DNA of 64,000 nt from Escherichia coli. Lineage in GTDB: Bacteria > Pseudomonadota > Gammaproteobacteria > Enterobacterales > Enterobacteriaceae. The stretch lies in NCBI RefSeq assembly GCF_030013205.1, contig NZ_CP122648.1, one strand, 5' to 3'. The position numbers were made by a program, and so were the translations under genes. The notes beneath the pieces are model-generated. The model was given only the letters and a program-made list of their open reading frames with translations, did no database searches and was not told the DNA's origin. Below, one piece after another: positions 26,424 to 49,266 of the stretch (positions within the stretch are counted from its first letter, which is position 1; each line of letters begins with the position of its first letter).

Positions 26424-27674
26424 GTGCTTACCGATACAAAATTAAAAAACCTCAAGCCGCAGGACAAACTGTACAAGGTCTCCGATCGTGACGGGCTGTA
26501 TGTAGCTGTGCTTACGTCAGGCACGGTCTCATTTCGTTATGACTACCGTATCAACGGTCGCCGCGAAACACTGGTAATCGGGCAGTATGGGCGTGACGGT
26601 ATCAGCCTGGCAGAAGCGCGGGAAGAACTGATTGCTGCAAAGAAGCTGCTTAAAGCAGGCCAGTCACCGGCTGCGGCTAAACGTGACGGTATCAAAAAGA
26701 TTCGTGGTGCCGAAACGTTTGCGGTACATACCGACAGTTATATGAAACACGTCATCCTGGCTGAAAGTACCCGCGCAATGAAGCAGGCAGTGATCGACCG
26801 TGACATACTTCCGGTTCTTGGCAACAAAATGATGGCTGAAATTACCACATCGATGGTTCGTGATTTGTGTGACCGGATTGTCGAACGCGGTGGCCGGGCA
26901 ACAGCAGTGCAGGCCAGGGAGATCATCAGCAGCGTATACCGTCACGCCAATGACCGTGGTCATGGTTTGTTTAATCCTGCGGCTGACATTAAGCCTTCGT
27001 CTATCGCCATATTTAAACCACGAGAGCGAACACTGACACCAGAAGAAATTGGCCTGTTCTTCCGCACGTTGGATGCCATTGGTGCTATGGGCACTATGAA
27101 AATGGCTTTAAAACTGGTGCTTATCACTATGGTTCGTAAGGGCGAATTCACCAATGCAACGTGGGATGAAATAGATTTTAAAAAATGGACATGGACAATT
27201 CCTTCAGACCGCATGAAGGGAAGCCGGGCGCATGTTATTTACCTGCCTAAACAGGCTCAGGATATATTGGTCGGGTTGCAGATGTGCGCTGGTGGAAGTG
27301 AATATCTGGTTCCTGGTCGTTACAATTTCCGGAAGCCATTATCTAATGCCGCGCTGAACTCTCTGATCGACAGAACGGTGAAAATAATAAATGAAGATGG
27401 TGAGCATATTCAGGATTTCACCGTACACGATATGCGCCGTACAGCCAGTACGTTGTTGCATGAGGCTGGTTATCCTTCAGACTGGATTGAAAAGGCTCTG
27501 GCACATGAGCAGAAAGGTGTGCGCGCCGTATATAACAAAGCGGAATACGCCAGACAGCGCGCCTACATGTTGCAGCAGTGGGCCGATATGATTGATTCCT
27601 GGATTAACGGGGAGCATACGGATCTGATTCCGTTCTCCCCGTCGAAGTTTGAGAAGTGGATGGCGGGGGAATAA
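26424..27674 (+). CDS. int: tyrosine integrase (P4-type, DUF4102 N-terminal arm-binding domain)
   Basis: 416 aa with a GTG start. N-terminus LTDTKLKNLKPQDKLYKVSDRDGLYV. Catalytic region HDMRRTASTLL...LAHE...VYNKAEY. Adjacent to attL. Confidence 0.92.
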   Translation: MLTDTKLKNLKPQDKLYKVSDRDGLYVAVLTSGTVSFRYDYRINGRRETLVIGQYGRDGISLAEAREELIAAKKLLKAGQSPAAAKRDGIKKIRGAETFAVHTDSYMKHVILAESTRAMKQAVIDRDILPVLGNKMMAEITTSMVRDLCDRIVERGGRATAVQAREIISSVYRHANDRGHGLFNPAADIKPSSIAIFKPRERTLTPEEIGLFFRTLDAIGAMGTMKMALKLVLITMVRKGEFTNATWDEIDFKKWTWTIPSDRMKGSRAHVIYLPKQAQDILVGLQMCAGGSEYLVPGRYNFRKPLSNAALNSLIDRTVKIINEDGEHIQDFTVHDMRRTASTLLHEAGYPSDWIEKALAHEQKGVRAVYNKAEYARQRAYMLQQWADMIDSWINGEHTDLIPFSPSKFEKWMAGE

Positions 27675-32918: not shown

Positions 32919-33752
32919 ATGAGCAGACATGCAACAGATTGGGCCTGGGAGACAGATCCAGGTAGCTCGTCATTAAAGCTCATACTGCTCTCGATGGCTG
33001 ACAGAGCCGATGAATATAACCTCTGCTACCCCAGCATAGAACGCCTCGTTAAAGACACTTGCCTGAATAAAAAAACCGTGCAGGCCGGGCTTATATCGCT
33101 CATGAAAATGGGGCTTATTTCAGATACCGGAGAGAGAAAGGGAGCGACGAAAAGAGTGCGGGTTTTCTCTCTTAATATAACCAAAAACGGGAACATTAAA
33201 GGCAACCGGGAAGGGGGTAATGGACCCGAAAACGGTAATGTTACCGAAAACGGTAATGTTACCGAAAACGGGAATATACCCAAAAACGGGATGTTGAATG
33301 ATCCCAAAAACGGGATGTTGAATGATCCCAAAAACGGGATCCAGAACCAGTCATATAACCAGTCATTTAACCAAGAGAGGGAGAGCAGGACAAAAAGCGG
33401 GGATTCTGTGCCTCATGACCCCGGCGCAAACAACGCCGTGATGAATAACTTTGTTCCTCCTGGTGGGCCAGGGCAATTAGGCAAATTTGTCATGCATGAA
33501 CAATGGCAGCCATCAGATGACTTTCTTCGGAAAAGCTCATTGCAGGGGATCTACCTGGACAGTCTGCCAACGGCACAGGAACTTGCAGAGTTCAGAATTT
33601 ACTGGATGGCTGAGGGTAAGGCATACCATCAGGCACAGTGGGAGCAGAAGCTGGCAAGGCGGCTGCAGATTAGCAGACAGAAGCAATCAACATTACCTGA
33701 TAACAACGTTCCGCACTGGAACAGCCCTGAAGCATGGGAGGATTTCTTGTGA
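32919..33752 (+). CDS. replication initiator (winged-HTH N-terminus, DnaT-like C-terminus; lambda O analogue)
   Basis: 277 aa. N-terminus LKLILLSMADRADEYNLCYPSIERLVKDTCLNKKTVQAGLISL. The C-terminus WQPSDDF...EFRIYWMAEGKAYHQAQWEQKLARRLQ is DnaT-domain like. The central Asn/Gly repeats are encoded by iterons. Followed by a lambda P-like gene. Confidence 0.75.
   Translation: MSRHATDWAWETDPGSSSLKLILLSMADRADEYNLCYPSIERLVKDTCLNKKTVQAGLISLMKMGLISDTGERKGATKRVRVFSLNITKNGNIKGNREGGNGPENGNVTENGNVTENGNIPKNGMLNDPKNGMLNDPKNGIQNQSYNQSFNQERESRTKSGDSVPHDPGANNAVMNNFVPPGGPGQLGKFVMHEQWQPSDDFLRKSSLQGIYLDSLPTAQELAEFRIYWMAEGKAYHQAQWEQKLARRLQISRQKQSTLPDNNVPHWNSPEAWEDFL
33181..33345 (+). repeat. iteron array (candidate origin of replication) inside the initiator gene
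   Basis: Seven AAAACGG cores at 33184, 33229, 33247, 33265, 33283, 33307 and 33331 (spacings 45, 18, 18, 18, 24, 24). Two 24-bp units CAAAAACGGGATGTTGAATGATCC are identical. Confidence 0.75.
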
Positions 33753-34651: not shown

Positions 34652-34996
34652 ATGAGAAAACAGATACAGGCTCTTGGTCGACTCAAAACAGGCCAGATGA
34701 ACAAAACAGAATCTGCGTATTGCCAGCACCTTGAGCAGCGTAAACGTGCAGGGGAAATCGCCTGGTATCGATTCGAGGGTATCAAGCTGCGGTTAGCTGA
34801 CAACACGTTCTATACGCCCGATTTTGCTGTGATGCTCGCCACCGGCGAGATGGAACTGCACGAAGTGAAAGGTTTCTGGACCGACGACGCCAGGGTGAAA
34901 ACCAAAGTCGCCGCAGATCAGTATCCGTTCCGAATCATCGGGGTAACGGTTAAGCCAAAGAAAGCAGGTGGTGGCTGGAACATCGAAGAGTTCTGA
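34652..34996 (+). CDS. DUF1064-type phage nuclease-fold protein
   Basis: 114 aa. MNKTESAYCQHLEQRKRAGEI...YTPDF...HEVKG...DARVK pattern (PD-(D/E)XK-like D...E-V-K). Confidence 0.65.
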   Translation: MRKQIQALGRLKTGQMNKTESAYCQHLEQRKRAGEIAWYRFEGIKLRLADNTFYTPDFAVMLATGEMELHEVKGFWTDDARVKTKVAADQYPFRIIGVTVKPKKAGGGWNIEEF

Positions 34997-35057
34997 ATCG
35001 ACGATCTTTTTAGTTATCAATGTAATCAATAAGTTATGTGGATAAGCGAGGGTAAAG

Positions 35058-35447
35058 ATGGAAAGTAATATCAAAGGGTTAGTTGCCGCCGGGCATGAGA
35101 TGGCTTCGGAACTGAAAGCAGAATGTGGTGCCGTTGATATGCGTAGTGTGGCAAAACTGATCAGCGATTTGGCAACGCAACTGGAAGTGCAACTGGTGCG
35201 TGCTAATGCGCTGGCAGCGGAGAATGCAAAGCTGAAGGATTACCTGGCCCCTATAGGGCTGAAGGTTGAAGGGACTCCAACCACCGACGCTGTCCTGGCT
35301 GAAATTGAACGCAAAGCAATCCGCAAGTTCATTAACAGCATTGAACACATCCTGCGTGACAAGTTATCACCGTATGACACCGAAGAGATGCTTGAGGCTA
35401 TGCGTATTTTTCTGGAAGAACAGGGAGGTGAGCAAAAATGGCAATAA
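35058..35447 (+). CDS. hypothetical coiled-coil phage protein
   Basis: 129-aa ORF in the rightward early/middle operon. No motif recognised. Confidence 0.5.
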   Translation: MESNIKGLVAAGHEMASELKAECGAVDMRSVAKLISDLATQLEVQLVRANALAAENAKLKDYLAPIGLKVEGTPTTDAVLAEIERKAIRKFINSIEHILRDKLSPYDTEEMLEAMRIFLEEQGGEQKWQ

Positions 35448-35755
35448 CAAAGCAACGTGTAGAAGAAATCATATCCCGTATTGAAATGTATGGGCATGGC
35501 GCAGGGTATACAGTCGAAGAGGTTTATGACCTTGCTGTACTGGCGCTGAATTTATCAAATATCGCAAAACTCAAGCGATACGAGCTTGATATGGATGGTT
35601 GTGACTCGTTCGGTCAGGATTGTGGCGCTGACATGACTGAAGATTCTGATGGCGATTATGTCCTGTTTGATGACGTGGTTAAGTTGTTTGAGTTTGATAC
35701 AACCACTCAGAAGTTAGAAAGCACAGCAAAGGAGGCAGCCAGTGAGCGAGATTGA
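35438..35755 (+). CDS. hypothetical acidic phage protein
   Basis: 105-aa ORF that overlaps both neighbours by a few codons (operon packing). Confidence 0.5.
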   Translation: MAITKQRVEEIISRIEMYGHGAGYTVEEVYDLAVLALNLSNIAKLKRYELDMDGCDSFGQDCGADMTEDSDGDYVLFDDVVKLFEFDTTTQKLESTAKEAASERD

Positions 35756-36317
35756 CTATCAGGCACTGCGTGACAAGGCAGAGAAAGCAACGTGTGGTGA
35801 GTGGTCGATCGAATATGGAGATGGCAGCTTTGATGGTGATGATGCACTAATTCATCGCGAGGCTGCTGGATATATTCCCATTTGCAGAATTGAAGGAGCG
35901 CATCCTGAAAGCGGTTTCGATGAAGATTTCCAAATGGAACAGCAGGCCAATGCTGAATTCATCGCTGCAGCCAATCCGGCTACCGTCTTGGCGCTGCTTG
36001 GCGAGCTGGAAGCAGCAAAAAAGCGCATAGCAGAACTGGAAGCCGAACTCGTAAGCCAAACTTACAAGTTGAACGAGCTATCGGGCAACTCTCCGGTAAC
36101 TCCGGATGGTTGGATAAGCTGTAGTGAGCGAATGCCGGATAGCAAAACAGCCGTTCTTGTTGCCAGGGAGTTTGACAGGAAAGGTGACTGGCGAATGAAA
36201 TGGGCGACTTACATCCCTGGGCATCCTGACGCTAATGATGGGTGGATAATTCCTGGTGCGTCGTGGATACCATCACACTGGATGCAACTACCAGAACCGC
36301 CGCAGGAGGCGAAATGA
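35742..36317 (+). CDS. Ead/Ea22-like protein with DUF551-like C-terminus
   Basis: 191 aa. N-terminus ALRDKAEKATCGEW, a coiled coil LLGELEAAKKRIAELEAEL, and a C-terminus W(I)SCSERMPD...SHWMQLPEPP typical of DUF551. Confidence 0.6.
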   Translation: MSEIDYQALRDKAEKATCGEWSIEYGDGSFDGDDALIHREAAGYIPICRIEGAHPESGFDEDFQMEQQANAEFIAAANPATVLALLGELEAAKKRIAELEAELVSQTYKLNELSGNSPVTPDGWISCSERMPDSKTAVLVAREFDRKGDWRMKWATYIPGHPDANDGWIIPGASWIPSHWMQLPEPPQEAK

Positions 36318-36407
36318 TGGACTATTCACAGTTAAGTGATTTTGAAATTAACAGAAGAGGCGAAATGATGGACTATTCACAGTTAAGTGATTTTGAAATT
36401 AACAGAA
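36306..36407 (+). repeat. perfect 51-bp tandem duplication (2 copies)
   Basis: GAGGCGAAATGATGGACTATTCACAGTTAAGTGATTTTGAAATTAACAGAA at 36306-36356 and 36357-36407. It duplicates the ribosome-binding site, the start codon and the first codons of the next gene, in frame. Confidence 0.95.
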
Positions 36408-36718
36408 TGGTAGGAGACATAATTTTTAAAGGCCTTTGGGCGTGTAAACCGGAAACATCAGGGAATAACACCAACAAATGGTATTACGGAAATACTGATA
36501 CAACTTTTGAGCCATTAAACCCTTTACCTGACTACTGCAATAATCCATCGGATGCATGGCCTATTATTGTTGATAATAAAATCAGTCTAACCTGCCACCA
36601 CTCTCGCGGTGAGTGGTCAGCAGTTTTTAATGCCGACAACATTTGCTTTCATGCGAATAATCCACTCCGAGCCGCCATGATTGTATTTCTCATGATGCAG
36701 GAAAATCAGAATGGCTAA
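36314..36718 (+). CDS. NinX/DUF2591-like phage protein
   Basis: MMDYSQLSDFEINR... N-terminus, present twice because of the duplication. An alternative start is 36365. ...NPSDAWPIIVDNKISL...NPLRAAMIVFLMMQE. Confidence 0.6.
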   Translation: MMDYSQLSDFEINRRGEMMDYSQLSDFEINRMVGDIIFKGLWACKPETSGNNTNKWYYGNTDTTFEPLNPLPDYCNNPSDAWPIIVDNKISLTCHHSRGEWSAVFNADNICFHANNPLRAAMIVFLMMQENQNG

Positions 36719-37115
36719 ATCAGCAGCAGAGCGCAAAGCCGCTCAGAGAGCCAGACAAGCTGCATCTGGCGTGCGTAAGCTGGAAATTGTGCTTGATGCT
36801 CAGGAAATTGAAATGCTGGAGCGTAACTGTGCCACGCGTCGCCCCGGGCGTGCGCCTTACGAATTTGGTGAGTATATAGCGTTACTGATCCGCCAGGATG
36901 ATGCACGCGTGCGCGGGCGTATAAAATCGATCAGCAGAAAACGTTGCGGTAAGTGCGGCGAGATAGTTCCTGTGAATTCATGCCCGTGTACCGTACCCAT
37001 TACAAATGGGACAACGGACTTGCTCTGCGTGACTGGCGTTATGTTGTTCGCATTGCAAACATCGATGTCAGCAATCTTTCAGAACCTTCCTCTGCCGCAA
37101 ATATTGCGAAGTTGA
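36711..37115 (+). pseudogene. early-region gene (MAKSAAERKAAQRARQA... family) running into head-gene remnant DNA
   Basis: The first ~85 codons look like a normal small phage protein ending in a Cys cluster (CGKCGE...CPC). The rest is read out of frame across DNA that encodes a capsid-like C-terminus in another frame. Confidence 0.4.
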
Positions 37116-37333
37116 TGGTTAAAGCACTGCATCGCATTCCAAATCGTGGCATGGGTCGCCCGGTGTTCTACATGAACCGCACTGTAGGCCAGGCTCTTGA
37201 TCTGCAATCTCTGGAGAAAACATCTCTGGCGATCAGCGTAAAAGAGACAGAAGGCGAGTGGTGGACTTCATTCCGTGGTGTACCAATCCGTGAAACTGAT
37301 GCGCTTCTGGAAACAGAAGCCCGCGTGGTGTAA
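36953..37333 (+). pseudogene. major capsid protein, C-terminal remnant
   Basis: The frame is closed by TAA at 36950-36952 and has only a GTG. The translation ...RYVVRIANIDVSNL...MGRPVFYMNRTVGQALDLQ...FRGVPIRETDALLETEARVV looks like the last ~115 aa of a capsid protein. No N-terminal part, portal or terminase lies upstream. Confidence 0.45.
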
Positions 37334-37384
37334 CGCCTGTTATTAACCTGTGGGTCGTAACAGACCCACTAATGGAGAAAGAAG

Positions 37385-37753
37385 ATGATCACCGACAAAC
37401 TGTTGATGTTCTCCGAAGCTCAGGCGGTTACGAATACCGCGGCTTCTACTGACGTAATCGATCTCGGTCCAATTGACGGAAAACGTCGTGATATCGGCGT
37501 GGGTTACCCGCTTGAGTTTTGGGCGCTGGTTAACACAGCCGCCGCGGCAAGCGGTGATGCAACTGTAAACATCCAGTTGCAGGCGAGTGAGAATAACAGC
37601 TCATGGACCACTATTTATGATAGTGGCGCACTGGCAAAGACCGCCCTGACAGCAGGTAAACGAGTTGTTTCTGCAAAGGTGCCTGCCGGTGTTCAGCGAT
37701 ATCTGCGTGTTAACTACTCCGTCGCAACTGGCCCACCGGGACAATTACGTTAA
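37385..37753 (+). CDS. capsid decoration/cement-like protein, possibly 3'-truncated
   Basis: 122 aa. MITDKLLMFSEAQAVTNTAASTDVIDLG...YLRVNYSVATGP resembles Bbp16/epsilon15 gp10-type cement proteins as I recall them. The C-terminus ends abruptly just before another junction. Confidence 0.4.
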   Translation: MITDKLLMFSEAQAVTNTAASTDVIDLGPIDGKRRDIGVGYPLEFWALVNTAAAASGDATVNIQLQASENNSSWTTIYDSGALAKTALTAGKRVVSAKVPAGVQRYLRVNYSVATGPPGQLR

Positions 37754-37794
37754 CGGCAAGCGCCTCTATTTTTGGCGCGGAGCAGGTAGGCAAA

Positions 37795-38391
37795 TTGTTC
37801 TATCTGGAACAGCCTGCAGTGGATTCTGTGCCGGTAACCAGCAATACCGCTGTAGTGGTTCGTGCCAACAGGAACGTCCCGCCATCCCTCAGGAATACGG
37901 CCACCACGAACTGGCAGATGGCGCGCCGGACATTTGGAGGCCTGTCTCATCTTGAAGGCCAGACCGTAAACATTCTCTCTGATGCGAGCGTGGAACCACA
38001 GAAAGTGGTTTCCGGAGGTGCCGTCACGCTGGAATCTCCGGGGGCTGTAGTGCACATCGGCCTGCCAATAACTGCTGAATTCGAAACACTGGATATCAAC
38101 ATTAACGGACAGGAAACGCTGCTGGACAAAAAACAGGTGATCCCCTCCGTTACTCTGGTTGTGAATGCCAGTCGCGGCATCTGGGCGACTACGCCTGGCG
38201 GTAAATGGTACGAATATCCACAGCGTGAATTCGAGTTCTACGATGATCCTGTTGATGATGCTACCGGAAAAGTAGAAGTGAAACTGGACAGTAACTGGGG
38301 CAAAAACGGACGTGTAAAAATCCGTCAGCTTGATCCGTTGCCGCTGTCTGTTCTTGCCGTTATTCCTCGCCTTACTGTTGGGGGATTTTGA
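37795..38391 (+). pseudogene. virion/tail protein, C-terminal remnant
   Basis: The frame opens only at 37714, with no ATG (a TTG at 37795) and no Shine-Dalgarno. The translated ...GGLSHLEGQTVNILSDASV...GLPITAEFETLDI... looks like an internal-to-C-terminal part of a larger structural protein. Confidence 0.4.
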
Positions 38392-38855
38392 TGATCGACG
38401 TTAAAATTATTCCCGCTACCGAAGAGCATCTTCAGATGATTTTGCCGGATGTTCGTCAGGCTGATATTGACGAACTGTATGCGGTATCGCTGATGACTAC
38501 CGAAGATGCGCTGCGTGTTGGTCTGCGCACTGCGACTATGGCCTGGTCAGGGTTCGCGAACGGAGAACTGGTAACCATGTTTGGTGTATCTCCGGCGTCA
38601 ATGATCGGTGGCAATGGTACGCCTTGGCTGGTAGGAACCAGCCGTATTGAAAAATATCAGAAGACATTTCTTCGCCACTGCCGACCTGTATTGCAGCAGA
38701 TGCTGGCAGTTTATCCGCGCCTGGAAAACTACGTCGACGAGCGAAACCATGTTGCCAAAGCATGGCTGCACTGGCTTGGATTCAGGCTTGAAGAAGCCGC
38801 GCCTTATGGTGCTCTTGGTCTTAATTTCCACAGATTTCACATGGAGAGAAAATAA
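38388..38855 (+). CDS. structural-module protein, unknown function
   Basis: 155-aa ORF whose start overlaps the upstream stop (ATGA). It occupies the position before the internal virion protein genes. Confidence 0.55.
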   Translation: MMIDVKIIPATEEHLQMILPDVRQADIDELYAVSLMTTEDALRVGLRTATMAWSGFANGELVTMFGVSPASMIGGNGTPWLVGTSRIEKYQKTFLRHCRPVLQQMLAVYPRLENYVDERNHVAKAWLHWLGFRLEEAAPYGALGLNFHRFHMERK

Positions 38856-39400
38856 TGTGCGATCCGGTTATTGCTGGTGGCGCAATGCTCGCCATGAGTG
38901 GCATTCAGGCATACACCCAGTACCAACAGGGAAAGTATGCCTCGAAGGTTGCAGAAGCGAACGCAGATATAGCCACAGCTCAGGCAAATGATGCAATAAA
39001 CAGAGGTAACGCTGAAGCTGAGCAACGGCGCAGAGAGACGCGACAGCGGCTTGGTACACAGGCGGCGACAATGGGGGCGACCGGCGCTGATTTATCTACC
39101 GGTAACGCGCTGGATATATTTGGTGACACTGCTCAGTTTGGCGCTCTTGATTCGCTGACGACGGTGAATAACGCGCAACGCGAGGCTTACGGTTATCAGG
39201 TTCAGGCTGCCAACTATAAAGCAGAAGCCAGTTCAGCCCGTAAACAGGGGAATGTGGGAGCAGCAACAACATTGCTCACTGCGCCTCTGAAGGCATACGG
39301 TGCGTACCAGATGTTTGGTGGGACGTGGAGTCCGTTTACTCAAAGCACCCCCGCGCCAATCAGGGCAGCAGCAGGAACCAGATTACCCGGAGGATTATAA
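38855..39400 (+). CDS. internal virion protein (Ala/Gln-rich)
   Basis: 181 aa. The stop overlaps the next start (TAATG). Composition and position resemble podovirus core proteins. Confidence 0.55.
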   Translation: MCDPVIAGGAMLAMSGIQAYTQYQQGKYASKVAEANADIATAQANDAINRGNAEAEQRRRETRQRLGTQAATMGATGADLSTGNALDIFGDTAQFGALDSLTTVNNAQREAYGYQVQAANYKAEASSARKQGNVGAATTLLTAPLKAYGAYQMFGGTWSPFTQSTPAPIRAAAGTRLPGGL

Positions 39401-42021
39401 TGCCAGTCGTACCAACAGTATCCGGACGTCAGGTTGAGAGCCGTGGAGTTCAGTCAGCAGGCTTGCAGACGTTTTCTCAGCCAGGTATTGGTGATGCTTT
39501 TGTTCGGGCAGGGACAGAGGCAATTGATGTTCTGGGTCAGGCAAAACAGCGCGCCAATATTGCCTTGATTCAGGAGGCATCCCTTAAACTCAGTCAGACA
39601 GGCAGTGATCTGCTGAATAATCCTGAAACAGGATTGCTTAACCTGAAAGGGAAAAATGCTATTGGAAAAGGTCAGGAGTATACGCAGCAGTTTGATGCCC
39701 AGGTCGAGCAACTGGCTATGTTGCTGCCGGATGAACAGGCTCGTAATGCTTTCATGCAGCAGGCGCAGCAGCAGCGCATTCAGTTCACTACGCAGGCCGG
39801 GAGGTACGAAATAGGACAGGTTCGCCAGTATGAGGCGGATATGCAGGATGCGACACTAAAAAACCTATCGATGCAGTTCCGTAACCCGACAATGGCAAAC
39901 CAGGCAGGATTGAAGGCATATCATAGCATCATCGCTTACGGCGAAGCCCACGGCCAGAGTCAGGAAGAGATCGAACAGAACTGGGTTTCGTGGCGCGAGA
40001 ATGCCGCGAACGGTGCGGCGGAGGCGTGGTATGTGCCGATGTATCAACAGATGATGGGTCCGAACGGCAAGATTGAGGTAACCGATACACCGAGTGAGGC
40101 GCAGTTATTCTCTGCAATAATCTGGCAGGAGAGTGGCGGAAATCAGTACGGAAAGGACGGAACACCTCTGGTGTCGCCAAAAGGCGCTGTTGGCGTAGCG
40201 CAGGTGACGGAAGATACTGGCCCCGAAGCTGCCCGCCTTGCTGGCGTGCCGTGGGACCGCGATAAATGGTTGAATGACCCGCGCTATAATGCCCGCTTGG
40301 GGCAAGCTTATTTCGGCGCGCAGATGAAGAAATACGACAATAACCCGGTTCTGGCAGTAGCTGCCTATAACGCTGGCCCAGGAAAGGTTGACGGCTGGAT
40401 TAAACAGATTGGCGACCCGCGCACAGGCGAAGTCAGTAACGCCCAGTTTGCCGCAGCTATCCCATACGACGAGACGCGCAATTATGTGGCAAAAGTAACT
40501 GGCAGTGCTGGAGCTATTCCTGGATCTGCGACGATGGAAAACCTCATCGCACAGCCATTCTGGAACGCCATGAGTCCGGACAAAAAGTCGCAGATGATGA
40601 GCAAGGTTGCTGGCATGTACGACATGCAGGCTTCAGCCGGTCGCGTTGCGCTACAGAGTCGAATGCAGGACGACCTATCCAAAATTGAGGCCGGTAAGCA
40701 GGTGACGCCTATTTCAGCGCACGAATGGGCCGCCGTTATGCCGCTTCAGGCAGCGCCTGCCGAGCGCCTGCAGATGGAAAAAACCTTCCAGCAATACCAG
40801 CAGGCAATGACGCTACAACCTGTTTATCAGACCATTATGCAGGGCAACGTCCAGCAGGGTACCGCCGCCGTGCAGGCAATGGCACCGCAGGAAAACGCCC
40901 CTGACTTTAAATACAAAGCAGAGCTTTATGCATCGGCAAAGGTCAAGCTTGGGCAGGTACTGAAGGCGCGGGAAGCGGATCCGGGGGCATGGCTGCAACA
41001 AAACTCTCCGGTTGTGCAGGCTGCATTCCAGCAGTACCTGAATGACCCTTCATCTGGTGAATACCTAGTTTCCCGCATACAGTCTGAAAAAGACCGCCTG
41101 GGGATAATGAGCAAAAAAGTTTTACCGGAGTCCATGGTCAATGATGTACTGCAGCGTATTGACAACACGCAGGAATCTAGCGTTAAGGCCATTCAGTCGG
41201 TGGCGCAGTCGTTCGGCAAATACTCGGATCAGGTGATGCGGCAGGTGCAAAATAAAGCATTCCCAGCTTTAAAGGTTGTAATGTCTACAGAAAACCAACG
41301 GGCAGCAGATGCGTTGTGGCAAATACGGAATGTACCTACTTCTGATTTGAGATCTGGTTTGGATAAAAACCAGGCAGACAGTGCAGACTCATCGTGGACA
41401 GATCAATTTAAAGATTTTTCTTCAACTCTTATTCCTCAGAGAAATGGTGCTGAAAACTGGACTATTTATAACGAGCAGGGAAAACGCTTGACCTACAACT
41501 ACATGCAGCGCGGAATGTCGGCGTCTGATGCAGCAAAACAGGCGTATCAGGACCTTCTCGGCGAGCAGTACCAGACCAATGGCACTTGGCGGCTACCTAA
41601 TCGTGCAGGGGTAGATATTCGTGACGTTAACGATGGTGCCAATGCGTATCTGAAAAACCTGTCAGCAGATCAGATTATGCCGCTTATTGGTGACCCAAGG
41701 CTACCTGATGAGGTCAACCGTGAGCAGAGTATCTCCCGCATTCGTGATAATGCGCAGTGGGTTACCAACAGCGACGAAACAGGACTTACCCTGATGCTCA
41801 ACGGGCTGATCGTCAACGGTGCCGACGGCAACCCGATTACGGTGACGTTCAACGATCTGGCGAAACTGGGAACAACCAACCGATCAGTATGGAACCGCAT
41901 TACCAAGTTCATTGATACTCCGGTGAAATATACTCCCGGACAGTCTAAGGAATACAGCGCAGAAAGTCAGCGCGACAACCTGATTAACATTTTCCAGAAC
42001 GGCCAGCAATCAGGACGATAA
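39400..42021 (+). CDS. internal virion/ejection protein with lytic transglycosylase (SLT) domain
   Basis: Start moved to ATG 39400 (GGAGG upstream), giving 873 aa. SLT motifs IIWQESGGNQ...GAVGVAQV...AAYNAGPGKV. Confidence 0.8.
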   Translation: MPVVPTVSGRQVESRGVQSAGLQTFSQPGIGDAFVRAGTEAIDVLGQAKQRANIALIQEASLKLSQTGSDLLNNPETGLLNLKGKNAIGKGQEYTQQFDAQVEQLAMLLPDEQARNAFMQQAQQQRIQFTTQAGRYEIGQVRQYEADMQDATLKNLSMQFRNPTMANQAGLKAYHSIIAYGEAHGQSQEEIEQNWVSWRENAANGAAEAWYVPMYQQMMGPNGKIEVTDTPSEAQLFSAIIWQESGGNQYGKDGTPLVSPKGAVGVAQVTEDTGPEAARLAGVPWDRDKWLNDPRYNARLGQAYFGAQMKKYDNNPVLAVAAYNAGPGKVDGWIKQIGDPRTGEVSNAQFAAAIPYDETRNYVAKVTGSAGAIPGSATMENLIAQPFWNAMSPDKKSQMMSKVAGMYDMQASAGRVALQSRMQDDLSKIEAGKQVTPISAHEWAAVMPLQAAPAERLQMEKTFQQYQQAMTLQPVYQTIMQGNVQQGTAAVQAMAPQENAPDFKYKAELYASAKVKLGQVLKAREADPGAWLQQNSPVVQAAFQQYLNDPSSGEYLVSRIQSEKDRLGIMSKKVLPESMVNDVLQRIDNTQESSVKAIQSVAQSFGKYSDQVMRQVQNKAFPALKVVMSTENQRAADALWQIRNVPTSDLRSGLDKNQADSADSSWTDQFKDFSSTLIPQRNGAENWTIYNEQGKRLTYNYMQRGMSASDAAKQAYQDLLGEQYQTNGTWRLPNRAGVDIRDVNDGANAYLKNLSADQIMPLIGDPRLPDEVNREQSISRIRDNAQWVTNSDETGLTLMLNGLIVNGADGNPITVTFNDLAKLGTTNRSVWNRITKFIDTPVKYTPGQSKEYSAESQRDNLINIFQNGQQSGR

Positions 42022-42022
42022 C

Positions 42023-43720
42023 ATGCCAATTTACACAGATGATCCGGGACAGGGAATTAACCAGCCAATTGGCAACGCGCCAGCAGGGCTTGGCGAATCG
42101 CTGCTTTCTTCCCTTAAGCAGGGATTTGAAGAGGGGCCGGTCATGTCCGGCTACCGTTTTGCGCAGGCCGACTCGCTGGCGAATGACCCAAACTCTACAG
42201 TTATCAGTAAGCAGGAAGCGGATGAGCTCCTGAAGCAGTACGGCGTAAAGAGCATAAACGTGCCAGATTCTGGCGTTACGCAGGCTTTTCTCGATCATGT
42301 TATTGCCGAACGCAAAGATTCTCTGGCACGCCAGCAGATCGCGATGTCGGCACCGAGCGGGTGGGTAGCCACGCCGCTTAATTTCGCAGCCAGCCTAGCT
42401 GGTTCAATGGCAGATCCTGGTAACGTGGCGCTGGCGCTGGTTCCGTTCGCTGGAGAAGCAAAGGCGGCTTCTGTGCTTGGCCGATTTGGCGAGCGATTTG
42501 TTGCTGGTGCACGCATGGGGGCAGCGCAGGCGTTGGTGACCGTGCCGCTTACCGGGCTGGCAGCGGCGGCGGAAGGTGACGACTTCACCTATAGCAACGC
42601 GTTGGAAAGTACTTTCTTTAACACGATGGCTGGCGGTCTAATGCATGCCGGCGGCGGCCTTATCGCCGATATCGTGCGACCGCGTCGCGTTCCCGATGCT
42701 GCAACGGGAGAGTCCCCGGCGTTTTCTGGCGATGCGCAGCCAACCCCGGTGATAACGCCTGACAACATTCCGGCGGGCGTGAATATCCCTGAGGTTGGCG
42801 CTAACGCAGATCTGGCGGCGGCCATTTCCAGTGAAGCGGAGAGCTACGCATACAGCCGGGCTTATGACGACGTGGTTCCTGACTATATGGCGCGCCAGCA
42901 GGAGTTACAGAGCGGGCAGATCGGTAACGTTGCCGACCTGCGTGCCGAGCTTGCGGCTAATCAACGTCATGCTGACTCGCTTGATGCGACGCTGCAGCAG
43001 CGCACCAAAAAGTATCAGGGGCAGCGGATGAAGTTTAAGGATGCGCGCTCTAGGGCACTGAAAGAGATTCAGGCCGAGAAAGACGCCATCGCTGCACGCA
43101 ATCAGGAGATCAACACATCGCTGGAGCAGAACGCGACAGCAGAGCAGGCGCGCTGGCGCCAGTCTCAGATTTCCCGCGGCGAGATCCCCGACGACCTGAA
43201 AGTCACCATTTCCGAGCGTGCGCAGCAGATCCTGGACGGCATGCAGATGTCTCCGGTCGCTGGCGCAGTTCGCACTGCCGCAAGCGCCATCAGGGATGCT
43301 GACTGGAGCGTGAACCAGCAGGCGTATCGCGCTGCGCTGGCACACATGATGGAAGGACGTATCCCAGATGTTGAGCCCTTCTATGAACTGCACAAACCGG
43401 CACTGCGTGAACGCGCCATCCATCGCATACAGAACCCGGCACGGCAGGTTGATGAAACGGCTCGCCCAGCAAGCGAAACAGCCGATCGGGTTTATCAAGA
43501 AACGCAAAAGGCAGATCATGAAATTACCGCTGCCGCTGCAGACCTTGATAACGAGCTCAACCTGAGTAACGCACTGCTTGACGATATCGCTGTCGATAAC
43601 CCTGATCTTGCGACCACGTTGCGCCAGAAACTCAATGATATTCGTGCCGACGCCAGCGACAATAGCATGAGCAACGCTTTCCGGGCATTTGCCGCCTGTA
43701 TGATTAACCGGGGGATGTGA
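42023..43720 (+). CDS. internal virion/ejection protein
   Basis: 565-aa intact ORF, tightly packed between two other large virion ORFs, with a coiled-coil-rich C-terminal half. Confidence 0.65.
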   Translation: MPIYTDDPGQGINQPIGNAPAGLGESLLSSLKQGFEEGPVMSGYRFAQADSLANDPNSTVISKQEADELLKQYGVKSINVPDSGVTQAFLDHVIAERKDSLARQQIAMSAPSGWVATPLNFAASLAGSMADPGNVALALVPFAGEAKAASVLGRFGERFVAGARMGAAQALVTVPLTGLAAAAEGDDFTYSNALESTFFNTMAGGLMHAGGGLIADIVRPRRVPDAATGESPAFSGDAQPTPVITPDNIPAGVNIPEVGANADLAAAISSEAESYAYSRAYDDVVPDYMARQQELQSGQIGNVADLRAELAANQRHADSLDATLQQRTKKYQGQRMKFKDARSRALKEIQAEKDAIAARNQEINTSLEQNATAEQARWRQSQISRGEIPDDLKVTISERAQQILDGMQMSPVAGAVRTAASAIRDADWSVNQQAYRAALAHMMEGRIPDVEPFYELHKPALRERAIHRIQNPARQVDETARPASETADRVYQETQKADHEITAAAADLDNELNLSNALLDDIAVDNPDLATTLRQKLNDIRADASDNSMSNAFRAFAACMINRGM

Positions 43721-46269
43721 TGGCAGCAAACGAATTTTTGACGCAGTGCGAGCGCAGTGTAAATGCTGCCGCTGGTCGCGAGCTTTCTTCCGATGAGATG
43801 GAGTCGCTGGTGCGTGACATGAACGACACCACTAGGCGAATTCTGGCGACCAATGAGGCGCTGTCTCTGGAAGAGGCCGCGATGCGCGCAGCGGAAGAAC
43901 TGAGCAATGCCGATATGCTGGCAAAACAGATTGAGGCTCGCAATAAGGCAATCAACACCCGTATTGCCGCACAACGACTTAGAGAGCTTCGTACTATCTG
44001 GAAAGACCGCCCGGATATCGGGCTTGAAGCAATGCTGGTTGGCCGCAACGATGCGCGTACCGGCGCCCGCCGGTCGGTATCTTCGGAGGTGGCGCAACTG
44101 CGCGGCAAGTATCATTCCGGTATCAACTACGATTTTGACCGTGCCGGGCTGGTGCAATTCATCGCCAGCGGCAGCAATGACAGGGAAATTGCCGATGCAA
44201 TGTGGCGCATAGGGCGCGGGCAGTCAACTGACGGTATGACAAAGCAATCCGTAAGCGCTGCACAAATCATCATGAAATGGCAGGAAACTGCGCGCATTGA
44301 TGAGAACCGCGCCGGGGCATGGATACGCAAAGAGCCGGGCTATATAGTGCGCCAGTCACACGACATCATGAAGATCCGCGCCGCAGGTTATGAAGCATGG
44401 CGAAATGCTATTCTCCCGCGCCTTGATGAGCGCACTTTTGACGGCGTGGCTGACCGCGAGCAGTTCATGCGTAACATTTATAACGGGCTGGCTTCCGGCG
44501 TGCATCTTACATCTGAAAAGCCAGATTGGATGAATGGCTTTAAGGGATCGGCGAACGCAGCTAAACGCGCCAGCCAAGAGCGAATTTTGCACTTCAAAGA
44601 TGGTATCTCGTGGCACGAGTACAACCAGCAATTCGGCACCGGCAGCCTGCGAGAGGCGCTGTTTGGTGGCTTAAACAGCGCTGCCCGCACAACGGGCATG
44701 ATGCGCGTACTGGGCACTAACCCACAGAACATGTTTAAGTACCTGACGGACACCATTGCTGAAGATATCAGCAAATCCGGAAGACCGGCAGCGTTGGCTG
44801 ACTACATGACGAAGGTGCGTCGCATTAACCGTACCGTAATGCCGCAGGTTGACGGCTCGCTAAATATTCCTGGCAGCGTAGGCTGGGCCAATGCGTCGGC
44901 GGCTGTACGCGGCTGGTTGCGTATGAGCCAGCTTGGTGGCGCGGTAATCTCATCGTTTAACGACGTGCCTATCGCCGCTACCGAGATGCGCTACCAAGGG
45001 CAGAATTTTATGCAGGCGTTGCTTGGTGCTATGAGAGGCCGCTTCACGCGTTACAACAGCGCGGAGCAGAAAGAGATCCTTTCCTCTATCGGAGTTTATT
45101 CCGACTCCATGACGCAGGAAATCATCCGGCGCATATCTGGTGATGACACGCTGAATGGAAAACTTGGTCGCGCGCAGCAGCTTTTCTTTAAGTACAACCT
45201 CATGAACTTCTGGACCGAGAGCGGTCGTAACAGCAACGCCATGATGATAACCAACTGGCTTGCAAAGAATGCTGACCAGTCTCATGCGCGGCTACCGGAA
45301 GACCTGCGACGCGTGCTGGATCTGCACGGTATTGGCGAACGTGAGTGGGAAATTTTTCGTAACATGGACATGGCCGATAGCGAAGGTCGTAAGTTCATGA
45401 CGACCAGCGGCATGCGCGGCGTGCCTGACGAAGTGATTGCCGGTTATGTAGAGAGTAAGGGGATCAAACCAACGCAGCGCGCTATCGCTGACGCACGCGA
45501 TCAATTGGAAGGGCAGTTGCGCGGCTACATCCTTGACCGCCTGAATATCGCCATGTCAGAGCCTGGCGATCGCACGCAGGCGTTTATGAAGATGGGCACG
45601 GTGCCAGGAACGGTGGCTGGGGAAGCAATACGATTCGCTGGTCAATACAAATCGTTCACTGCAAGCTTCATGCAGAACGTACTAGGACGCGAAGTATTCG
45701 GGCGTGGTTATATTCCTGCTGGGCTTGGTGAGTCGAAAACCGGATCGCTGACGAATGCGCTGCTACGTAACGGGAAGGGGGCTTTCCTTGGTGCTGCAAA
45801 CCTCTTTGTCTGGGCGACTATGTTTGGTTATATCTCCATGCAGTCAAAACTCATGCTGAAAGGGCAAACACCACGCCCGGCAGATGCCAAGACGTTTCTC
45901 GCAGCCGCATCTCAGGGGGGCGGTCTTGGCATCTTGGGTGACTTCATGTTTGGCGAGGTCAACCGCATGGGGGCCGGGCCGGTTACGTCGCTAATGGGGC
46001 CAGCAGCATCGAACGCTGACAGCATTATCACGCTGCTCCAGCAGACCACGAGAGGGGATGCAGATTTGGGTGACTGGTATCGCACGGCACTTGACAATAC
46101 GCCATTCCTCAACGTGTTCTGGCTTCGTACGGCGATGAATGGTTTAATATTGAACCGGATACAAGATGCCCTTGACCCAGGCTCTCTTGAGCGTTATCAG
46201 CGCCGTGTTGAGCGTGAGCAGGGTAACGACTTTTTGATCCCACCATCGCAGTTCATGCTAGGTAAATAA
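43717..46269 (+). CDS. internal virion/ejection protein (largest)
   Basis: 850-aa intact ORF whose start overlaps the upstream stop. Hydrophobic segments near the C-terminus (AFLGAANLFVWATMFGYISM). Confidence 0.65.
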   Translation: MMAANEFLTQCERSVNAAAGRELSSDEMESLVRDMNDTTRRILATNEALSLEEAAMRAAEELSNADMLAKQIEARNKAINTRIAAQRLRELRTIWKDRPDIGLEAMLVGRNDARTGARRSVSSEVAQLRGKYHSGINYDFDRAGLVQFIASGSNDREIADAMWRIGRGQSTDGMTKQSVSAAQIIMKWQETARIDENRAGAWIRKEPGYIVRQSHDIMKIRAAGYEAWRNAILPRLDERTFDGVADREQFMRNIYNGLASGVHLTSEKPDWMNGFKGSANAAKRASQERILHFKDGISWHEYNQQFGTGSLREALFGGLNSAARTTGMMRVLGTNPQNMFKYLTDTIAEDISKSGRPAALADYMTKVRRINRTVMPQVDGSLNIPGSVGWANASAAVRGWLRMSQLGGAVISSFNDVPIAATEMRYQGQNFMQALLGAMRGRFTRYNSAEQKEILSSIGVYSDSMTQEIIRRISGDDTLNGKLGRAQQLFFKYNLMNFWTESGRNSNAMMITNWLAKNADQSHARLPEDLRRVLDLHGIGEREWEIFRNMDMADSEGRKFMTTSGMRGVPDEVIAGYVESKGIKPTQRAIADARDQLEGQLRGYILDRLNIAMSEPGDRTQAFMKMGTVPGTVAGEAIRFAGQYKSFTASFMQNVLGREVFGRGYIPAGLGESKTGSLTNALLRNGKGAFLGAANLFVWATMFGYISMQSKLMLKGQTPRPADAKTFLAAASQGGGLGILGDFMFGEVNRMGAGPVTSLMGPAASNADSIITLLQQTTRGDADLGDWYRTALDNTPFLNVFWLRTAMNGLILNRIQDALDPGSLERYQRRVEREQGNDFLIPPSQFMLGK

Positions 46270-46271
46270 TA

Positions 46272-46832
46272 ATGAAGGCAATTATATTTTTTGTTTCAAT
46301 ATTGATGTCTGCATTTTCTTTTGCAGGGCAAAATGTTAAATGCGAACTTCAATACTTTGGAGATAGCGATAAATTTAAGGTAACTCAGTTTTCTTTTATG
46401 GGGATTCCATCTGATTCATACCTTTATACCTGTGCCGACTGTGGAGGCATCCAGATAAACGTGTTCCCATCTATTCAGACTGTTGCTTCCTACTCATTTG
46501 AAAACAACATTGATTTCGAAAGGAAAATCAATGCTGAATACAACAGAAAAGACATAGCTAAACTTGAGATGGAAAACGTTACTCAAGGCGGGAGAATAAA
46601 ATATTCAATCACCGATACTGGTTTGGCAGAGTTTTACCCAGAGGGCAAAAAGATAAGCTACCTCTACTTTTTAGCCAAGCAACAAAATGGTAAAGAACAA
46701 GTAGGTTATTCAGGATTTGTTACCTCTAACGGGGATAAGTCATGCTCAATTATTGCGACATATCCAGGAAAAGAAATTTCTTTTCTGGGAAGTAAATCTT
46801 TAAGCTACTTTATGAATCATATATCAATGTAG
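46272..46832 (+). CDS. secreted/periplasmic protein, unknown function (accessory gene)
   Basis: 186 aa with signal peptide MKAIIFFVSILMSAFSFA-GQ. Visibly AT-rich compared with the upstream virion genes. It starts 2 nt after the preceding stop. Confidence 0.65.
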   Translation: MKAIIFFVSILMSAFSFAGQNVKCELQYFGDSDKFKVTQFSFMGIPSDSYLYTCADCGGIQINVFPSIQTVASYSFENNIDFERKINAEYNRKDIAKLEMENVTQGGRIKYSITDTGLAEFYPEGKKISYLYFLAKQQNGKEQVGYSGFVTSNGDKSCSIIATYPGKEISFLGSKSLSYFMNHISM

Positions 46833-46845
46833 CGTGACATGTCAC

Positions 46846-46870
46846 AGGCCGCTTTCGCGGCCTTGTTTTT
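46846..46870. terminator. terminator after the 186-aa gene
   Basis: AGGCCGC-TTTC-GCGGCCT followed by TGTTTTT. Confidence 0.8.
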
Positions 46871-47030
46871 AACGAATGCCACCGCCACCCGGGCGGGAAT
46901 CCGCAGAACGCCCACCGCAGCGGGAGCCGTCAGCGGCAGTATCGCTGTCGTGCTGACAACGACCGGCAAAGGCCTGAGTTGAAGCTACCAGAGACAACAA
47001 AACGAACAGTGCAGCAAATGCTTTTTTCAT
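46869..47030 (-). CDS. small secreted Gly/Arg-rich peptide (53 aa)
   Basis: Start placed at ATG 47030. Signal peptide MKKAFAALFVLLSLVASTQAFA, then GRCQHDSDTAADGSRCGGRSADSRPGGGGIR (2 Cys). The Shine-Dalgarno is weak. Confidence 0.5.
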   Translation of the reverse strand: MKKAFAALFVLLSLVASTQAFAGRCQHDSDTAADGSRCGGRSADSRPGGGGIR

Positions 47031-47043
47031 TGTGAAGTTTCCA

Positions 47044-47071
47044 TCTATAAGCCACCTCAATGTGGCGTCAA
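47044..47071 (-). promoter_or_regulatory. candidate sigma70 promoter for the small-peptide gene
   Basis: Minus strand reads TTGACG, 16 nt, TATAGA. The predicted leader is very short. Confidence 0.4.
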
Positions 47072-47100
47072 TGAGTGTAGCACTGGCTTTTGTTTCGTCC

Positions 47101-47124
47101 ACAAAAAAAGCCCGCAGCGCGGGC
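47101..47124 (-). terminator. intrinsic terminator of the 69-aa/288-aa operon
   Basis: Minus strand reads GCCCGC-GCT-GCGGGC followed by TTTTTTTGT. The stem overlaps the stop codon. Confidence 0.8.
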
Positions 47125-47990
47125 TATTCTTTTTTGCTATTTCTTTGATATATATTTCTTCCATTTTTGGTAACACGAATAACGTGCCCCCTGGATTCTA
47201 CTTTGTTATTTGTTGCTTTATATACTTCAAAATCAAACCATGATATATAACTTATTTCGTCAATAGACACCATGATCTCAAGTCCTGGCACTTTCTTTCT
47301 GCTAATTCCTCTTATTGCTGCAGTCCGCTTGACCTGTATTTCTCCTGGATAAGCATTAGTGAATGTGACAGATAAGTTGTCTTTGTTCCTGTATCCTGAC
47401 ATTAAAGGAACAAAAGATATGTGCTGATGCGGACCCTGATTTTCCGTTGGTTCACCAGAACCATTTATTATTCCAACATACACTTTGTTTGATGATAAAG
47501 TAATCAGCATTGGTCGTTTAGGATCCGATTCAATAGCATCAAGCAATAGTAAGTCTAAAGAACCTTGCGAGTAAGTTTTTCGCAGTACTCTGGCCTTCAT
47601 TGCCTCTGTTTTTTGCTCGTAAATATCACGTTTATAAAAACAACCAAGAAGAAAATCTTTCACCCACACAACAGACACATAACACAAAGAGAAGCAAATG
47701 GATGTGGCTGAGAGAAGAAGCAGCCACATGTAAATTCTATCTGTTTCTGGTTTTGATGTTACATTAAAAGTTTCCACCATATCGTGAACTAGGTGAAAAT
47801 CAGGCCATTTATATTTTATAGCGGCTGCAATTATTACTGATGCAACAAGGCAATATGTACCTAGTGCCGCTACTTTCATATAAAGAAGCTGGCCTTCGTG
47901 TCGGTATAAACGGAAATAATGATACTGGTTAGCGGTTATCATAATATAACCGCTAACCAGGATTGGGATAATTAGAAGAGCTAGCAACAC
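47124..47990 (-). CDS. membrane protein with ~170-aa C-terminal soluble domain, unknown function
   Basis: 288 aa with a GTG start preceded by AAGGAAG. Three or four N-terminal TM segments (LLALLIIPILVSGYIMI, VAALGTYCLVASVIIAAAI, IYMWLLLLSATSICFSLCYVSVVWV), then a soluble domain (...PMLITLSSNKVYVGIINGSGEP...SFVPLMSGYRNKD...). AT-rich. Confidence 0.7.
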   Translation of the reverse strand: MLLALLIIPILVSGYIMITANQYHYFRLYRHEGQLLYMKVAALGTYCLVASVIIAAAIKYKWPDFHLVHDMVETFNVTSKPETDRIYMWLLLLSATSICFSLCYVSVVWVKDFLLGCFYKRDIYEQKTEAMKARVLRKTYSQGSLDLLLLDAIESDPKRPMLITLSSNKVYVGIINGSGEPTENQGPHQHISFVPLMSGYRNKDNLSVTFTNAYPGEIQVKRTAAIRGISRKKVPGLEIMVSIDEISYISWFDFEVYKATNNKVESRGHVIRVTKNGRNIYQRNSKKE

Positions 47991-48199
47991 TACTTCCTTA
48001 CAGTGGCAAGATCCTGTTTAACAATTGCAGCAGCGAGACGACGCATCTCCTTAACCTCAGGAAGCTCAGAAATTTGCTGTGATGAGATATATACTCCACC
48101 ACGCTTGTTAACCTGCGCTGACGCCGGAACTTCTGCATTTTTTGCCTGAGGGCTGGGTGCATTATCCCTCGTTTTTGTACGAGCGAACCAAAATCCCAT
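47990..48199 (-). CDS. 69-aa protein, unknown function (first gene of the two-gene operon)
   Basis: ATG with a GGAGGA Shine-Dalgarno. Its stop TAG overlaps the GTG of the 288-aa gene (TAGTG). Confidence 0.6.
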   Translation of the reverse strand: MGFWFARTKTRDNAPSPQAKNAEVPASAQVNKRGGVYISSQQISELPEVKEMRRLAAAIVKQDLATVRK

Positions 48200-48225
48200 A
48201 TATCCTCCTCATGTAAACACATGGT

Positions 48226-48240
48226 TTACCTTTAAGGTAA
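48226..48240. promoter_or_regulatory. phage palindrome site I (TTACC-TTTAA-GGTAA)
   Basis: Perfect half-sites, 27 nt upstream of the 48199 start. On the gene strand the -10-like TAATAT abuts the site (TAATATTACC). Confidence 0.65.
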
Positions 48241-48270
48241 TATTACGCGAATCTACATCACATCGCCAAT

Positions 48271-48298: not shown

Positions 48299-48306
48299 GC
48301 CGCTCG

Positions 48307-49262: not shown

Positions 49263-49266
49263 AAAT

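Follow-up and report, generated by a model that had tools for sequence, protein, structure and literature searches.

The locus considered here raises the question of how a prophage with full-length ejection, tailspike and lysis genes came to carry nothing but a short run of gene fragments where its head and packaging module should stand. The fragments occupy positions 36711–38391 of a 64,000-nucleotide stretch (the window), which is 100% identical to the chromosome of Escherichia coli ETEC4079 (NZ_CP122643.1; pig faeces, Belgium). Judged from its sequence, the surrounding element is a 29,162-bp defective prophage of the phiV10/epsilon15 type (genus Uetakevirus) at the 3′ end of guaA. An earlier note, made from the letters of the window alone, had proposed that the head and packaging module was deleted, that stumps were left behind, and that the downstream virion, tailspike and lysis genes were intact. 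The comparisons presented below support this proposal. The preferred explanation, to which a probability of about 0.88 is assigned, is that the locus is a nonfunctional scar formed by stepwise, recent deletions at microhomologies and followed by cost-free decay.

Homology to phiV10 (NC_007804) spans positions 26217 to 55378 of the window. Both ends carry an exact copy of the 17-bp attachment (att) core ATTGAGTGGGAATGATT, for which two exact matches were found in the window and 0.01 were expected by chance. The same core at the 3′ end of guaA has been reported for phiV10, epsilon15 and ZX5 (PMC9782041). The guaA gene ends at 26231 and is adjoined by a P4-type tyrosine integrase gene at 26424–27674, so that site, core and integrase are those of Uetakevirus integration. 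Colinear blastn segments of 79–100% identity to phiV10 cover the lysogeny and replication regions, the stumps, gp16 and gp17, the N-terminus of the tailspike and the lysis genes, in the gene order of the genus. The virion gene set is incomplete: terS, terL and the portal, protease and gp12–gp14 genes are absent, and the capsid, cement and nozzle genes are truncated. The element is therefore a defective derivative and not a functional member of Uetakevirus. As an att-bounded phage element without genes essential for virions, it has the makeup of a defective (cryptic) prophage. Its length compares with 39,104 bp for the phiV10 genome. On the lysogeny and replication side, the RefSeq annotation lists intact integrase, AlpA-like regulator, repressor and replication genes, together with a RecT-family recombinase and a PD-(D/E)XK nuclease.

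The fragments were identified as the remains of four genes (Table 1). RefSeq, annotated with the NCBI Prokaryotic Genome Annotation Pipeline (PGAP), marks exactly these four as pseudogenes, "incomplete; partial in the middle of a contig". The first open reading frame (ORF; 36711–37115, 134 aa), a small early-type gene in the earlier note, begins with the first 93 codons of a gp55-like regulator and then continues out of frame into capsid DNA. The intact regulator has 112 aa, and its gene sits immediately upstream of terS in intact phages; the match to PHROG 536 ("transcriptional regulator") was obtained with the intact protein of a sibling strain. Stump 1 is 100% identical to siblings having the full 339-nt gene, and RefSeq describes it as missing the C-terminus. 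The second stump, described by RefSeq as missing the N-terminus, is the 3′ end of the major capsid gene. Its frame (36989–37333) is preceded by a TAA at 36950 and a GTG at 36953, in agreement with the earlier description, and covers positions 199–313 of the 313 in Pfam GP7. The full capsid protein matches PDB entries 3j4u_A and 3j40_A. Between the capsid stop and the cement start, positions 37351–37370 can pair as a hairpin with a perfect stem of 7 bp and a loop of 6 nt (GTGGGTC GTAACA GACCCAC); this hairpin, uncalled by a simple terminator scan because it has no T-run, may be a conserved post-capsid stem-loop.

The third stump belongs to the capsid cement gene. In the ORF at 37385–37753, whose abrupt end had already been remarked on, Bbp16-family homology stops at codon 117 of 145 (nucleotide 37736) and is followed by five foreign codons and a stop. 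The stump covers positions 1–105 of the 115 in Pfam Bbp16, and the full cement protein matches PDB 3j4u_H, a cementing protein. The fourth ORF (37795–38391) has a TTG start and no ATG close to it. It had been read as the C-terminal part of a larger structural protein, which is now identified as the 823-aa tail nozzle. Stump 4 matches PHROG 15566/376 ("tail protein") at C-terminal profile positions only, and RefSeq describes it as missing the N-terminus. The full-length nozzle homologue matches PDB 8ck1_A ("Tail Nozzle") with E = 5.7e-217. A short island of nozzle sequence, 100% identical to phiV10 9587–9689 and to the siblings, lies ahead of stump 4, and the prophage thus keeps 218 of the 823 nozzle residues (176–209 and 640–823). 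Pfam searches with the gp55-like regulator and with the nozzle returned no family, and the names of both came only from PHROG and PDB. Partial profile coverage and comparison with intact homologues rule out the possibility that the stumps are full-length members of small protein families.

Table 1. Features of the ETEC4079 guaA prophage discussed in the text (window coordinates).
Feature	Position	Strand	Remarks
attL, 17-bp att core ATTGAGTGGGAATGATT, guaA 3′ end	26217–26233	+	exact match; phiV10 homology starts here
Stump 1, gp55-like regulator gene, nt 1–280 of 339	36711–36990	+	phiV10 38766–39045, 97.9%; PHROG 536
J1, regulator nt 280 to capsid codon 215	36989–36990		microhomology TA, 2 bp
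Stump 2, major capsid 3′ end, residues 215–328 of 328 and stop	36991–37333	+	tblastn, 100% aa identity to phiV10 gp10
Stump 3, Bbp16-family capsid cement gene, codons 1–117 of 145	37385–37736	+	tblastn, phiV10 gp11 residues 1–117
J2, cement codon 117 to nozzle codon 176	37734–37736		microhomology CAC, 3 bp
Nozzle island between J2 and J3 (100 bp), codons 176–209	37737–37833	+	tblastn, gp15 residues 176–209
J3, nozzle codon 209 to codon 640	37834–37836		microhomology GTA, 3 bp
Stump 4, tail-nozzle C-terminus, codons 640–823 and stop	37837–38391	+	tblastn, phiV10 gp15
Internal-virion (ejection) protein genes, 154, 181, 873 (soluble lytic transglycosylase, SLT), 565, 849 and 186 aa	38391–46832	+	intact
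Tailspike gene, 789 aa	50598–52967	+	intact; N-terminal ~320 aa phiV10-like, C-terminal part different
Lysis cassette: putative holin, holin, GH19 endolysin, Rz-like spanin	53454–55251	+	88% DNA identity to phiV10 24684–26736
attR, second att core copy ATTGAGTGGGAATGATT	55362–55378	+	exact match

Breakpoints were mapped by blastn against phiV10, the prophages of the sister strains ETEC1748 and ETEC4067, and the guaA prophage of strain VTB96815v. All four references give the same breakpoints, and the agreement is to the base for phiV10, ETEC1748 and VTB96815v. At least two junctions had been anticipated, near 36950–37000 and 37710–37800. Both were located there (J1 and J2), and a third (J3) brings the total to three; the endpoints are base-exact, with microhomologies of TA, CAC and GTA. 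At J1, 6,802 bp are missing when ETEC4067 is taken as the reference, 5,094 bp with ETEC1748 and 6,965 bp with phiV10. By the annotation of the siblings, J1 removed the Cys-rich C-terminus of the regulator, a 70-aa ORF, terS, terL, a tRNA-Arg gene, a gp06-like gene, the portal gene, a Bbp19-like gene, the protease gene and capsid codons 1–214. The loss at J2 is 1,937 bp by comparison with phiV10 and 1,620 bp by comparison with VTB96815v; it comprises the cement C-terminus, gp12, gp13 (where present), gp14 and nozzle codons 1–175. J3 removed 1,290 bp in frame, equal to 430 nozzle codons (210–639). Window positions 37836 and 37834 correspond at J3 to positions 18590 and 19878 of the ETEC1748 locus (L004), and a segment of 2,802 bp in the siblings is reduced to 1,512 bp in the window. 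No filler or templated insertion is present in the three junction sequences. Together the three deletions account for about 10 kb of missing morphogenesis operon.

The lost genes were sought elsewhere. The absence of any terminase or portal gene between attL and attR, noted earlier from the ORFs, was borne out by three approaches. A tblastn search of the 64-kb window with phiV10 terS, terL, gp06, portal, gp08, protease, gp12, gp13 and gp14 gave nothing at E ≤ 1e-3, no terminase and no portal came up when the ten late-region ORFs that follow the stumps (38391–52964) were scanned against PHROG, and the RefSeq annotation of the prophage lists neither. Packaging genes were thus found nowhere in the element by tblastn or PHROG scan. 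Translocation of the DNA missing at J1 was rejected with a 6.6-kb query from inside the gap, which matched four siblings at full length and 100% identity and did not match ETEC4079; the search bears on identical full-length copies, and a partial or diverged copy could escape it. A 1,901-bp query over the stumps (window 36600–38500) matched one place only in the ETEC4079 chromosome, and this stump-spanning query found no second copy of capsid, cement or nozzle DNA in the genome. A promoter and terminator scan of 36200–39500 returned counts no different from those for shuffled sequence.

The order of events was obtained from sister strains. The same prophage is present at the same site in five other enterotoxigenic E. 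coli (ETEC) genomes belonging to the same collection from Belgian pigs: ETEC1748, ETEC4067, ETEC4069, ETEC4070 and ETEC4071 (NZ_CP122685, NZ_CP122719 and others). No paper was found on strains ETEC4079, ETEC1748 or ETEC4067. J2 is common to all six strains, and J1 and J3 are private to ETEC4079; among 5,426 complete E. coli genomes the three-junction state occurs once. It follows that J2 came first and that the later deletions are recent and lineage-specific. The siblings keep the full gp55-like gene, terS, terL, tRNA-Arg, the whole capsid gene and nozzle codons 176–823. Four of them (ETEC4067, ETEC4069, ETEC4070 and ETEC4071) also keep portal and protease, and their terS-through-capsid regions are complete and mutually 100% identical. 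ETEC4069, ETEC4070 and ETEC4071 were compared in this region; the further state, described for ETEC4067, combines J2 with a 1,234-bp loss in the early region at a 4-bp microhomology (TAGC), from DNA that the window keeps (34798–36031). This loss runs from a DUF1064 gene to an ead/Ea22-like gene (L006, ~12442–12873), and the fused product is annotated as a "DUF551 domain-containing protein". ETEC1748 has a 1,708-bp deletion of its own, by which portal residues ~1–216 are fused in frame to the last ~106 protease residues, with the crossover at TTA inside a patch matching at 11 of 13 positions. The 320-aa fusion (L004, 16124–17086) is named "portal protein" in RefSeq (WP_282843225.1) and carries no pseudogene flag.

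The strains are otherwise nearly identical. Away from the junctions, segments of 12,650 bp and 848 bp in the window match ETEC1748 at 100% identity, and a further 19,625 bp contains one single-nucleotide polymorphism (SNP; 40898) and one 1-nt homopolymer indel (47103). The SNP corresponds to A500D in the 873-aa protein. Relative to ETEC4067, the prophage shows 3 SNPs, 5 indels of at least 24 bp and two 1-nt homopolymer differences (47103 and 55368). Simple changes in tandem-repeat copy number explain two of these five, ETEC4067 being one unit short in a 24-nt repeat and in a 51-nt repeat. The former lies at 33279–33340 in a DnaT-like replication gene (2.6 copies) and differs by one unit between strains; the latter is a perfect 51-bp tandem duplication (17 codons) at 36306–36407 in a NinX-family gene, present in two copies in ETEC1748 and one in ETEC4067. 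The strains diverge by about 1e-4 per site, and shared SNP states place ETEC4079 nearer to ETEC1748 than to ETEC4067. The suggestion of a very recent deletion is supported directly by these sequences: siblings that differ by 1 SNP and a 1-nt indel (ETEC1748) or 3 SNPs (ETEC4067) still hold the DNA removed at J1 and J3.

J1 and J3 occur in one assembly, and they could in principle be mis-assemblies or represent a minority subpopulation, the true prophage being like that of the sisters. The junctions are clean, with no Ns and no duplicated sequence, and the region is single-copy in the genome. Collapse of unique sequence at 2–3 bp of microhomology would be an atypical assembler error, and J2 and the sibling-specific deletions show that this type of deletion really does occur in the clone. 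An artefact is accordingly regarded as highly improbable.

By these comparisons, deletions at 2–4 bp of microhomology, with J2 preceding J1 and J3, have removed all packaging and head functions. The scar reading explains this state as follows. Three deletions by illegitimate recombination, or by replication slippage, at 2–3 bp of microhomology would have taken about 10 kb. J2 would have arisen first, in the common ancestor of the six strains, and would alone have destroyed tail assembly. J1 and J3 would have been added afterwards in the ETEC4079 line, with the sisters gaining other deletions. After the loss of particle formation, more deletions in morphogenesis genes would have cost nothing and so would have accumulated, as expected from deletional bias on unselected DNA. 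The integrase, AlpA-like regulator, repressor, replication, ejection, tailspike and lysis genes would be intact because too little time has elapsed.

Another possibility is that the prophage itself raises the deletion rate, repeated abortive induction, with in situ replication and expression of RecT and the nuclease, leading to template switching. J1 and J3 could then be one complex event of the microhomology-mediated break-induced replication or fork stalling and template switching (MMBIR/FoSTeS) type, as they are 848 bp apart, both lie at 2–3 bp of microhomology and both are private to one strain. The junctions cluster, and every one of them has 2–4 bp of microhomology. The 5 indels of at least 24 bp against 3 SNPs in the prophage also contrast with the chromosomal flank, in which ~30 kb (window 1–26216 and 55379–59404) contains 3 SNPs and no indels relative to ETEC4067, and the prophage encodes both the recombinase and the nuclease. 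A surplus of surviving indels in a dead prophage is nevertheless predicted by relaxed selection alone. The tandem-repeat changes already make up two of the five, the stretch of flank used as a control is short (30 kb), and the junctions have no templated insertions. RecT-type annealing normally requires homology far longer than 2–3 bp, which counts against RecT-driven deletion. A prophage-specific deletion rate is therefore considered unlikely. Much the same doubt applies to the proposal that prophage-specific deletion set in after J2, giving at least three further morphogenesis losses in two of the six strains (J1 and J3 maybe as one event), or that J1 was selected as a lysis-disarming change. 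The latter idea arises because J1 removes the gp55-like C-terminus and the late promoter region and would so disarm lysis.

Several points weigh against the scar reading in its simplest form. It depends on a single assembly (ETEC4079) for J1 and J3, and it takes the later deletions to have been neutral. The clone has five deletions of at least 1 kb, and four of them lie between terS and the nozzle gene, in ~11.5 kb of a ~39-kb phage; if deletions were placed uniformly, the probability of this clustering would be roughly 0.03, which is only weakly significant for a region defined post hoc. Such clustering might point to a local hotspot or to selection. The loss at J1 of the gp55-like C-terminus and of the DNA upstream of terS may impair late transcription and possibly lysis. 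The data are compatible with either order of J1 and J3, and with either order of J1 and the ETEC1748 deletion.

The late genes downstream of the scar were examined for truncation. The ejection protein genes have end-to-end PHROG coverage or lengths equal to those in VTB96815v, and 60 complete E. coli genomes carry their 7.5-kb block colinearly as a single piece. Among the products of the ten late ORFs, PHROG scans identified internal virion proteins, an SLT-domain protein, an anti-repressor, the tailspike and proteins of unknown function. For the tailspike and the four lysis genes, the protein accessions are shared with the sister strains. The claim that the downstream genes are uninterrupted thus holds for the full-length 873-, 565-, 849-, 186- and 789-aa products and the four lysis genes; the 849-aa protein had been given as 850 aa. 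The 565-aa virion protein (42023–43720) is named "exodeoxyribonuclease VII large subunit" in RefSeq. It matches PHROG 3003 (unknown function) over its full length and an internal virion protein family weakly, and the RefSeq label looks like an annotation error.

The same intactness could be taken to mean that the element was domesticated and kept for a benefit to the host, such as toxin or DNA release by lysis, a free tailspike depolymerase, superinfection exclusion or a tailocin-like particle; the earlier note had offered retention for another use as its second option. Beyond the scars, ~19.6 kb of downstream DNA is intact, with 1–3 SNPs relative to the sisters, and the lysogeny, replication and lysis modules are complete. 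A divergence of ~1e-4, however, is too low for selection to be detected, and intactness is uninformative about it. Two SNPs are available in the retained virion genes, and one of them, A500D in the 873-aa protein, is nonsynonymous. A particle-based use is excluded because the portal, capsid and gp12–gp14 genes are missing and the nozzle is truncated. With 218 of 823 nozzle residues and gp12–gp14 deleted, a tail-like particle is impossible and the tailspike has no attachment point. A tailocin would combine a complete tail-assembly module with lysis genes and lack head genes; here the nozzle is reduced and gp12–gp14 are gone. The occurrence of the three-junction state in a single complete genome also argues against domestication. 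No positive evidence for retention was obtained, and this option is judged very unlikely.

A phage satellite that has shed its own head and packaging genes and is packaged by a helper Uetakevirus would likewise have no terminase, portal or capsid genes and would keep an integrase, an AlpA-like regulator, replication genes and exact att sites. Satellites of the phage-inducible chromosomal island (PICI) or P4-like kinds are compact, lack virion and lysis genes, exploit a helper and carry a packaging site. This element is 29 kb long and retains ejection protein, tailspike and lysis genes, which are normally missing from satellites, and it has no capsid-size-redirection or helper-interference genes. 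In headful phages pac is usually located in the terS region, and that region is deleted here. The stumps are pseudogene debris, not a streamlined architecture, there is no second copy of capsid, cement or nozzle DNA in the genome, and the configuration is unique to one strain. A satellite is considered extremely unlikely. Nor does the element resemble a gene transfer agent, in which head and terminase genes are retained; its terminase, portal and capsid genes are missing or truncated.

The prophage was compared with its relatives. It shares its site, att core and gene order with phiV10, with PAS61, phiv142-3, ZX5 and TL-2011b, and with the type phage of Uetakevirus, Salmonella epsilon15. The lysogeny, recombination and replication region is 97.8% identical in DNA to phiV10 over ~9 kb, and the stumps and gp16/gp17 are 97–100% identical. 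Besides lacking ~10 kb of the morphogenesis operon through the three deletions, the ETEC4079 prophage differs from phiV10 in its mosaic internal virion proteins (39.8–46.8 kb) and tailspike C-terminus and in having no oac O-acetyltransferase gene. The blocks at 39800–46830 (internal proteins) and 51430–52967 (tailspike C-terminus) are mosaic replacements, for which no DNA-level match was found in a collection of 50,697 phage records. Homology to phiV10 gp19 was not detected in the prophage, and gp20 is only 23% identical. A relative in this part is the VTB96815v guaA prophage (NZ_CP178648), which is 99.1% identical over 9.3 kb covering the nozzle C-terminus and the internal proteins and has matching gene lengths (2622, 1698, 2550 and 561 nt). 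That prophage differs in having a complete terS-to-nozzle module and another tailspike, with an endosialidase domain; it is apparently intact, judged by its complete set of morphogenesis genes.

Cryptic E. coli prophages, such as those of K-12 and O157 Sakai, are similar in that internal deletions remove morphogenesis genes and other modules survive. The ETEC4079 case differs in being very early, with essentially no point-mutation decay and with intermediates preserved in sister isolates. Defective prophages are reportedly the subject of a 2014 study by Bobay, Touchon and Rocha entitled "Pervasive domestication of defective prophages by bacteria", and defective (cryptic) prophages of this species are said to have been treated by Asadulghani et al. 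in 2009.

The neighboring chromosome was also inspected. Just outside attR, a copy of insertion sequence IS1 (56367–57133) interrupts yfgH, a glycine-zipper 2TM gene, and leaves stubs at 56025–56366 and 57125–57319. A 9-bp alignment overlap relative to VTB96815v (L005, 37128–37136) indicates a 9-bp target duplication, and the insertion is common to the sister strains. The pdeF gene for a cyclic-di-GMP phosphodiesterase (~58173–60416) is split into two ORFs (58212–59306 and 59340–60416); RefSeq describes it as "frameshifted; internal stop" in ETEC4079 and the siblings, and it is intact in VTB96815v. Upstream of xseA-guaBA, 10119–21521 encodes sinH (an intimin-like inverse autotransporter), sinI and a 2,680-aa adhesion-domain protein. 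Both upstream-flank SNPs relative to ETEC4067 (15344 and 20573) lie in the giant adhesin gene and are synonymous. The ETEC4079 genome is ~84 kb larger than those of its near-identical sisters (5,181,067 vs ~5,096,800 bp); since ~8 kb of prophage was lost, ~90 kb must have been gained elsewhere.

The locus belongs to a known phage genus, its attachment site and the process that shaped it are known as well, and automated annotation had already flagged it; it is an ordinary defective prophage. Defective prophages that result from internal deletions are commonplace, and the finding carries little weight as a discovery. Its noteworthy aspect is a decay series preserved across six near-identical pig ETEC genomes, in which three states are captured: J2 with the 1,234-bp early loss (ETEC4067), J2 with the portal::protease fusion (ETEC1748), and J1, J2 and J3 together (ETEC4079). 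Deletions outnumber point substitutions in this series, which is a natural illustration of how fast a prophage is dismantled after inactivation and may be of use in calibrating deletion against substitution rates. By the gene content of the ETEC4079 prophage, induction may still lead to excision, replication and cell lysis, and virions would be neither made nor packaged. Excision is probable in view of the intact integrase and AlpA-like genes and the two intact att cores. For ETEC4079, the outcome would be a prophage that is unable to spread as a virus and may still kill its cell on induction.

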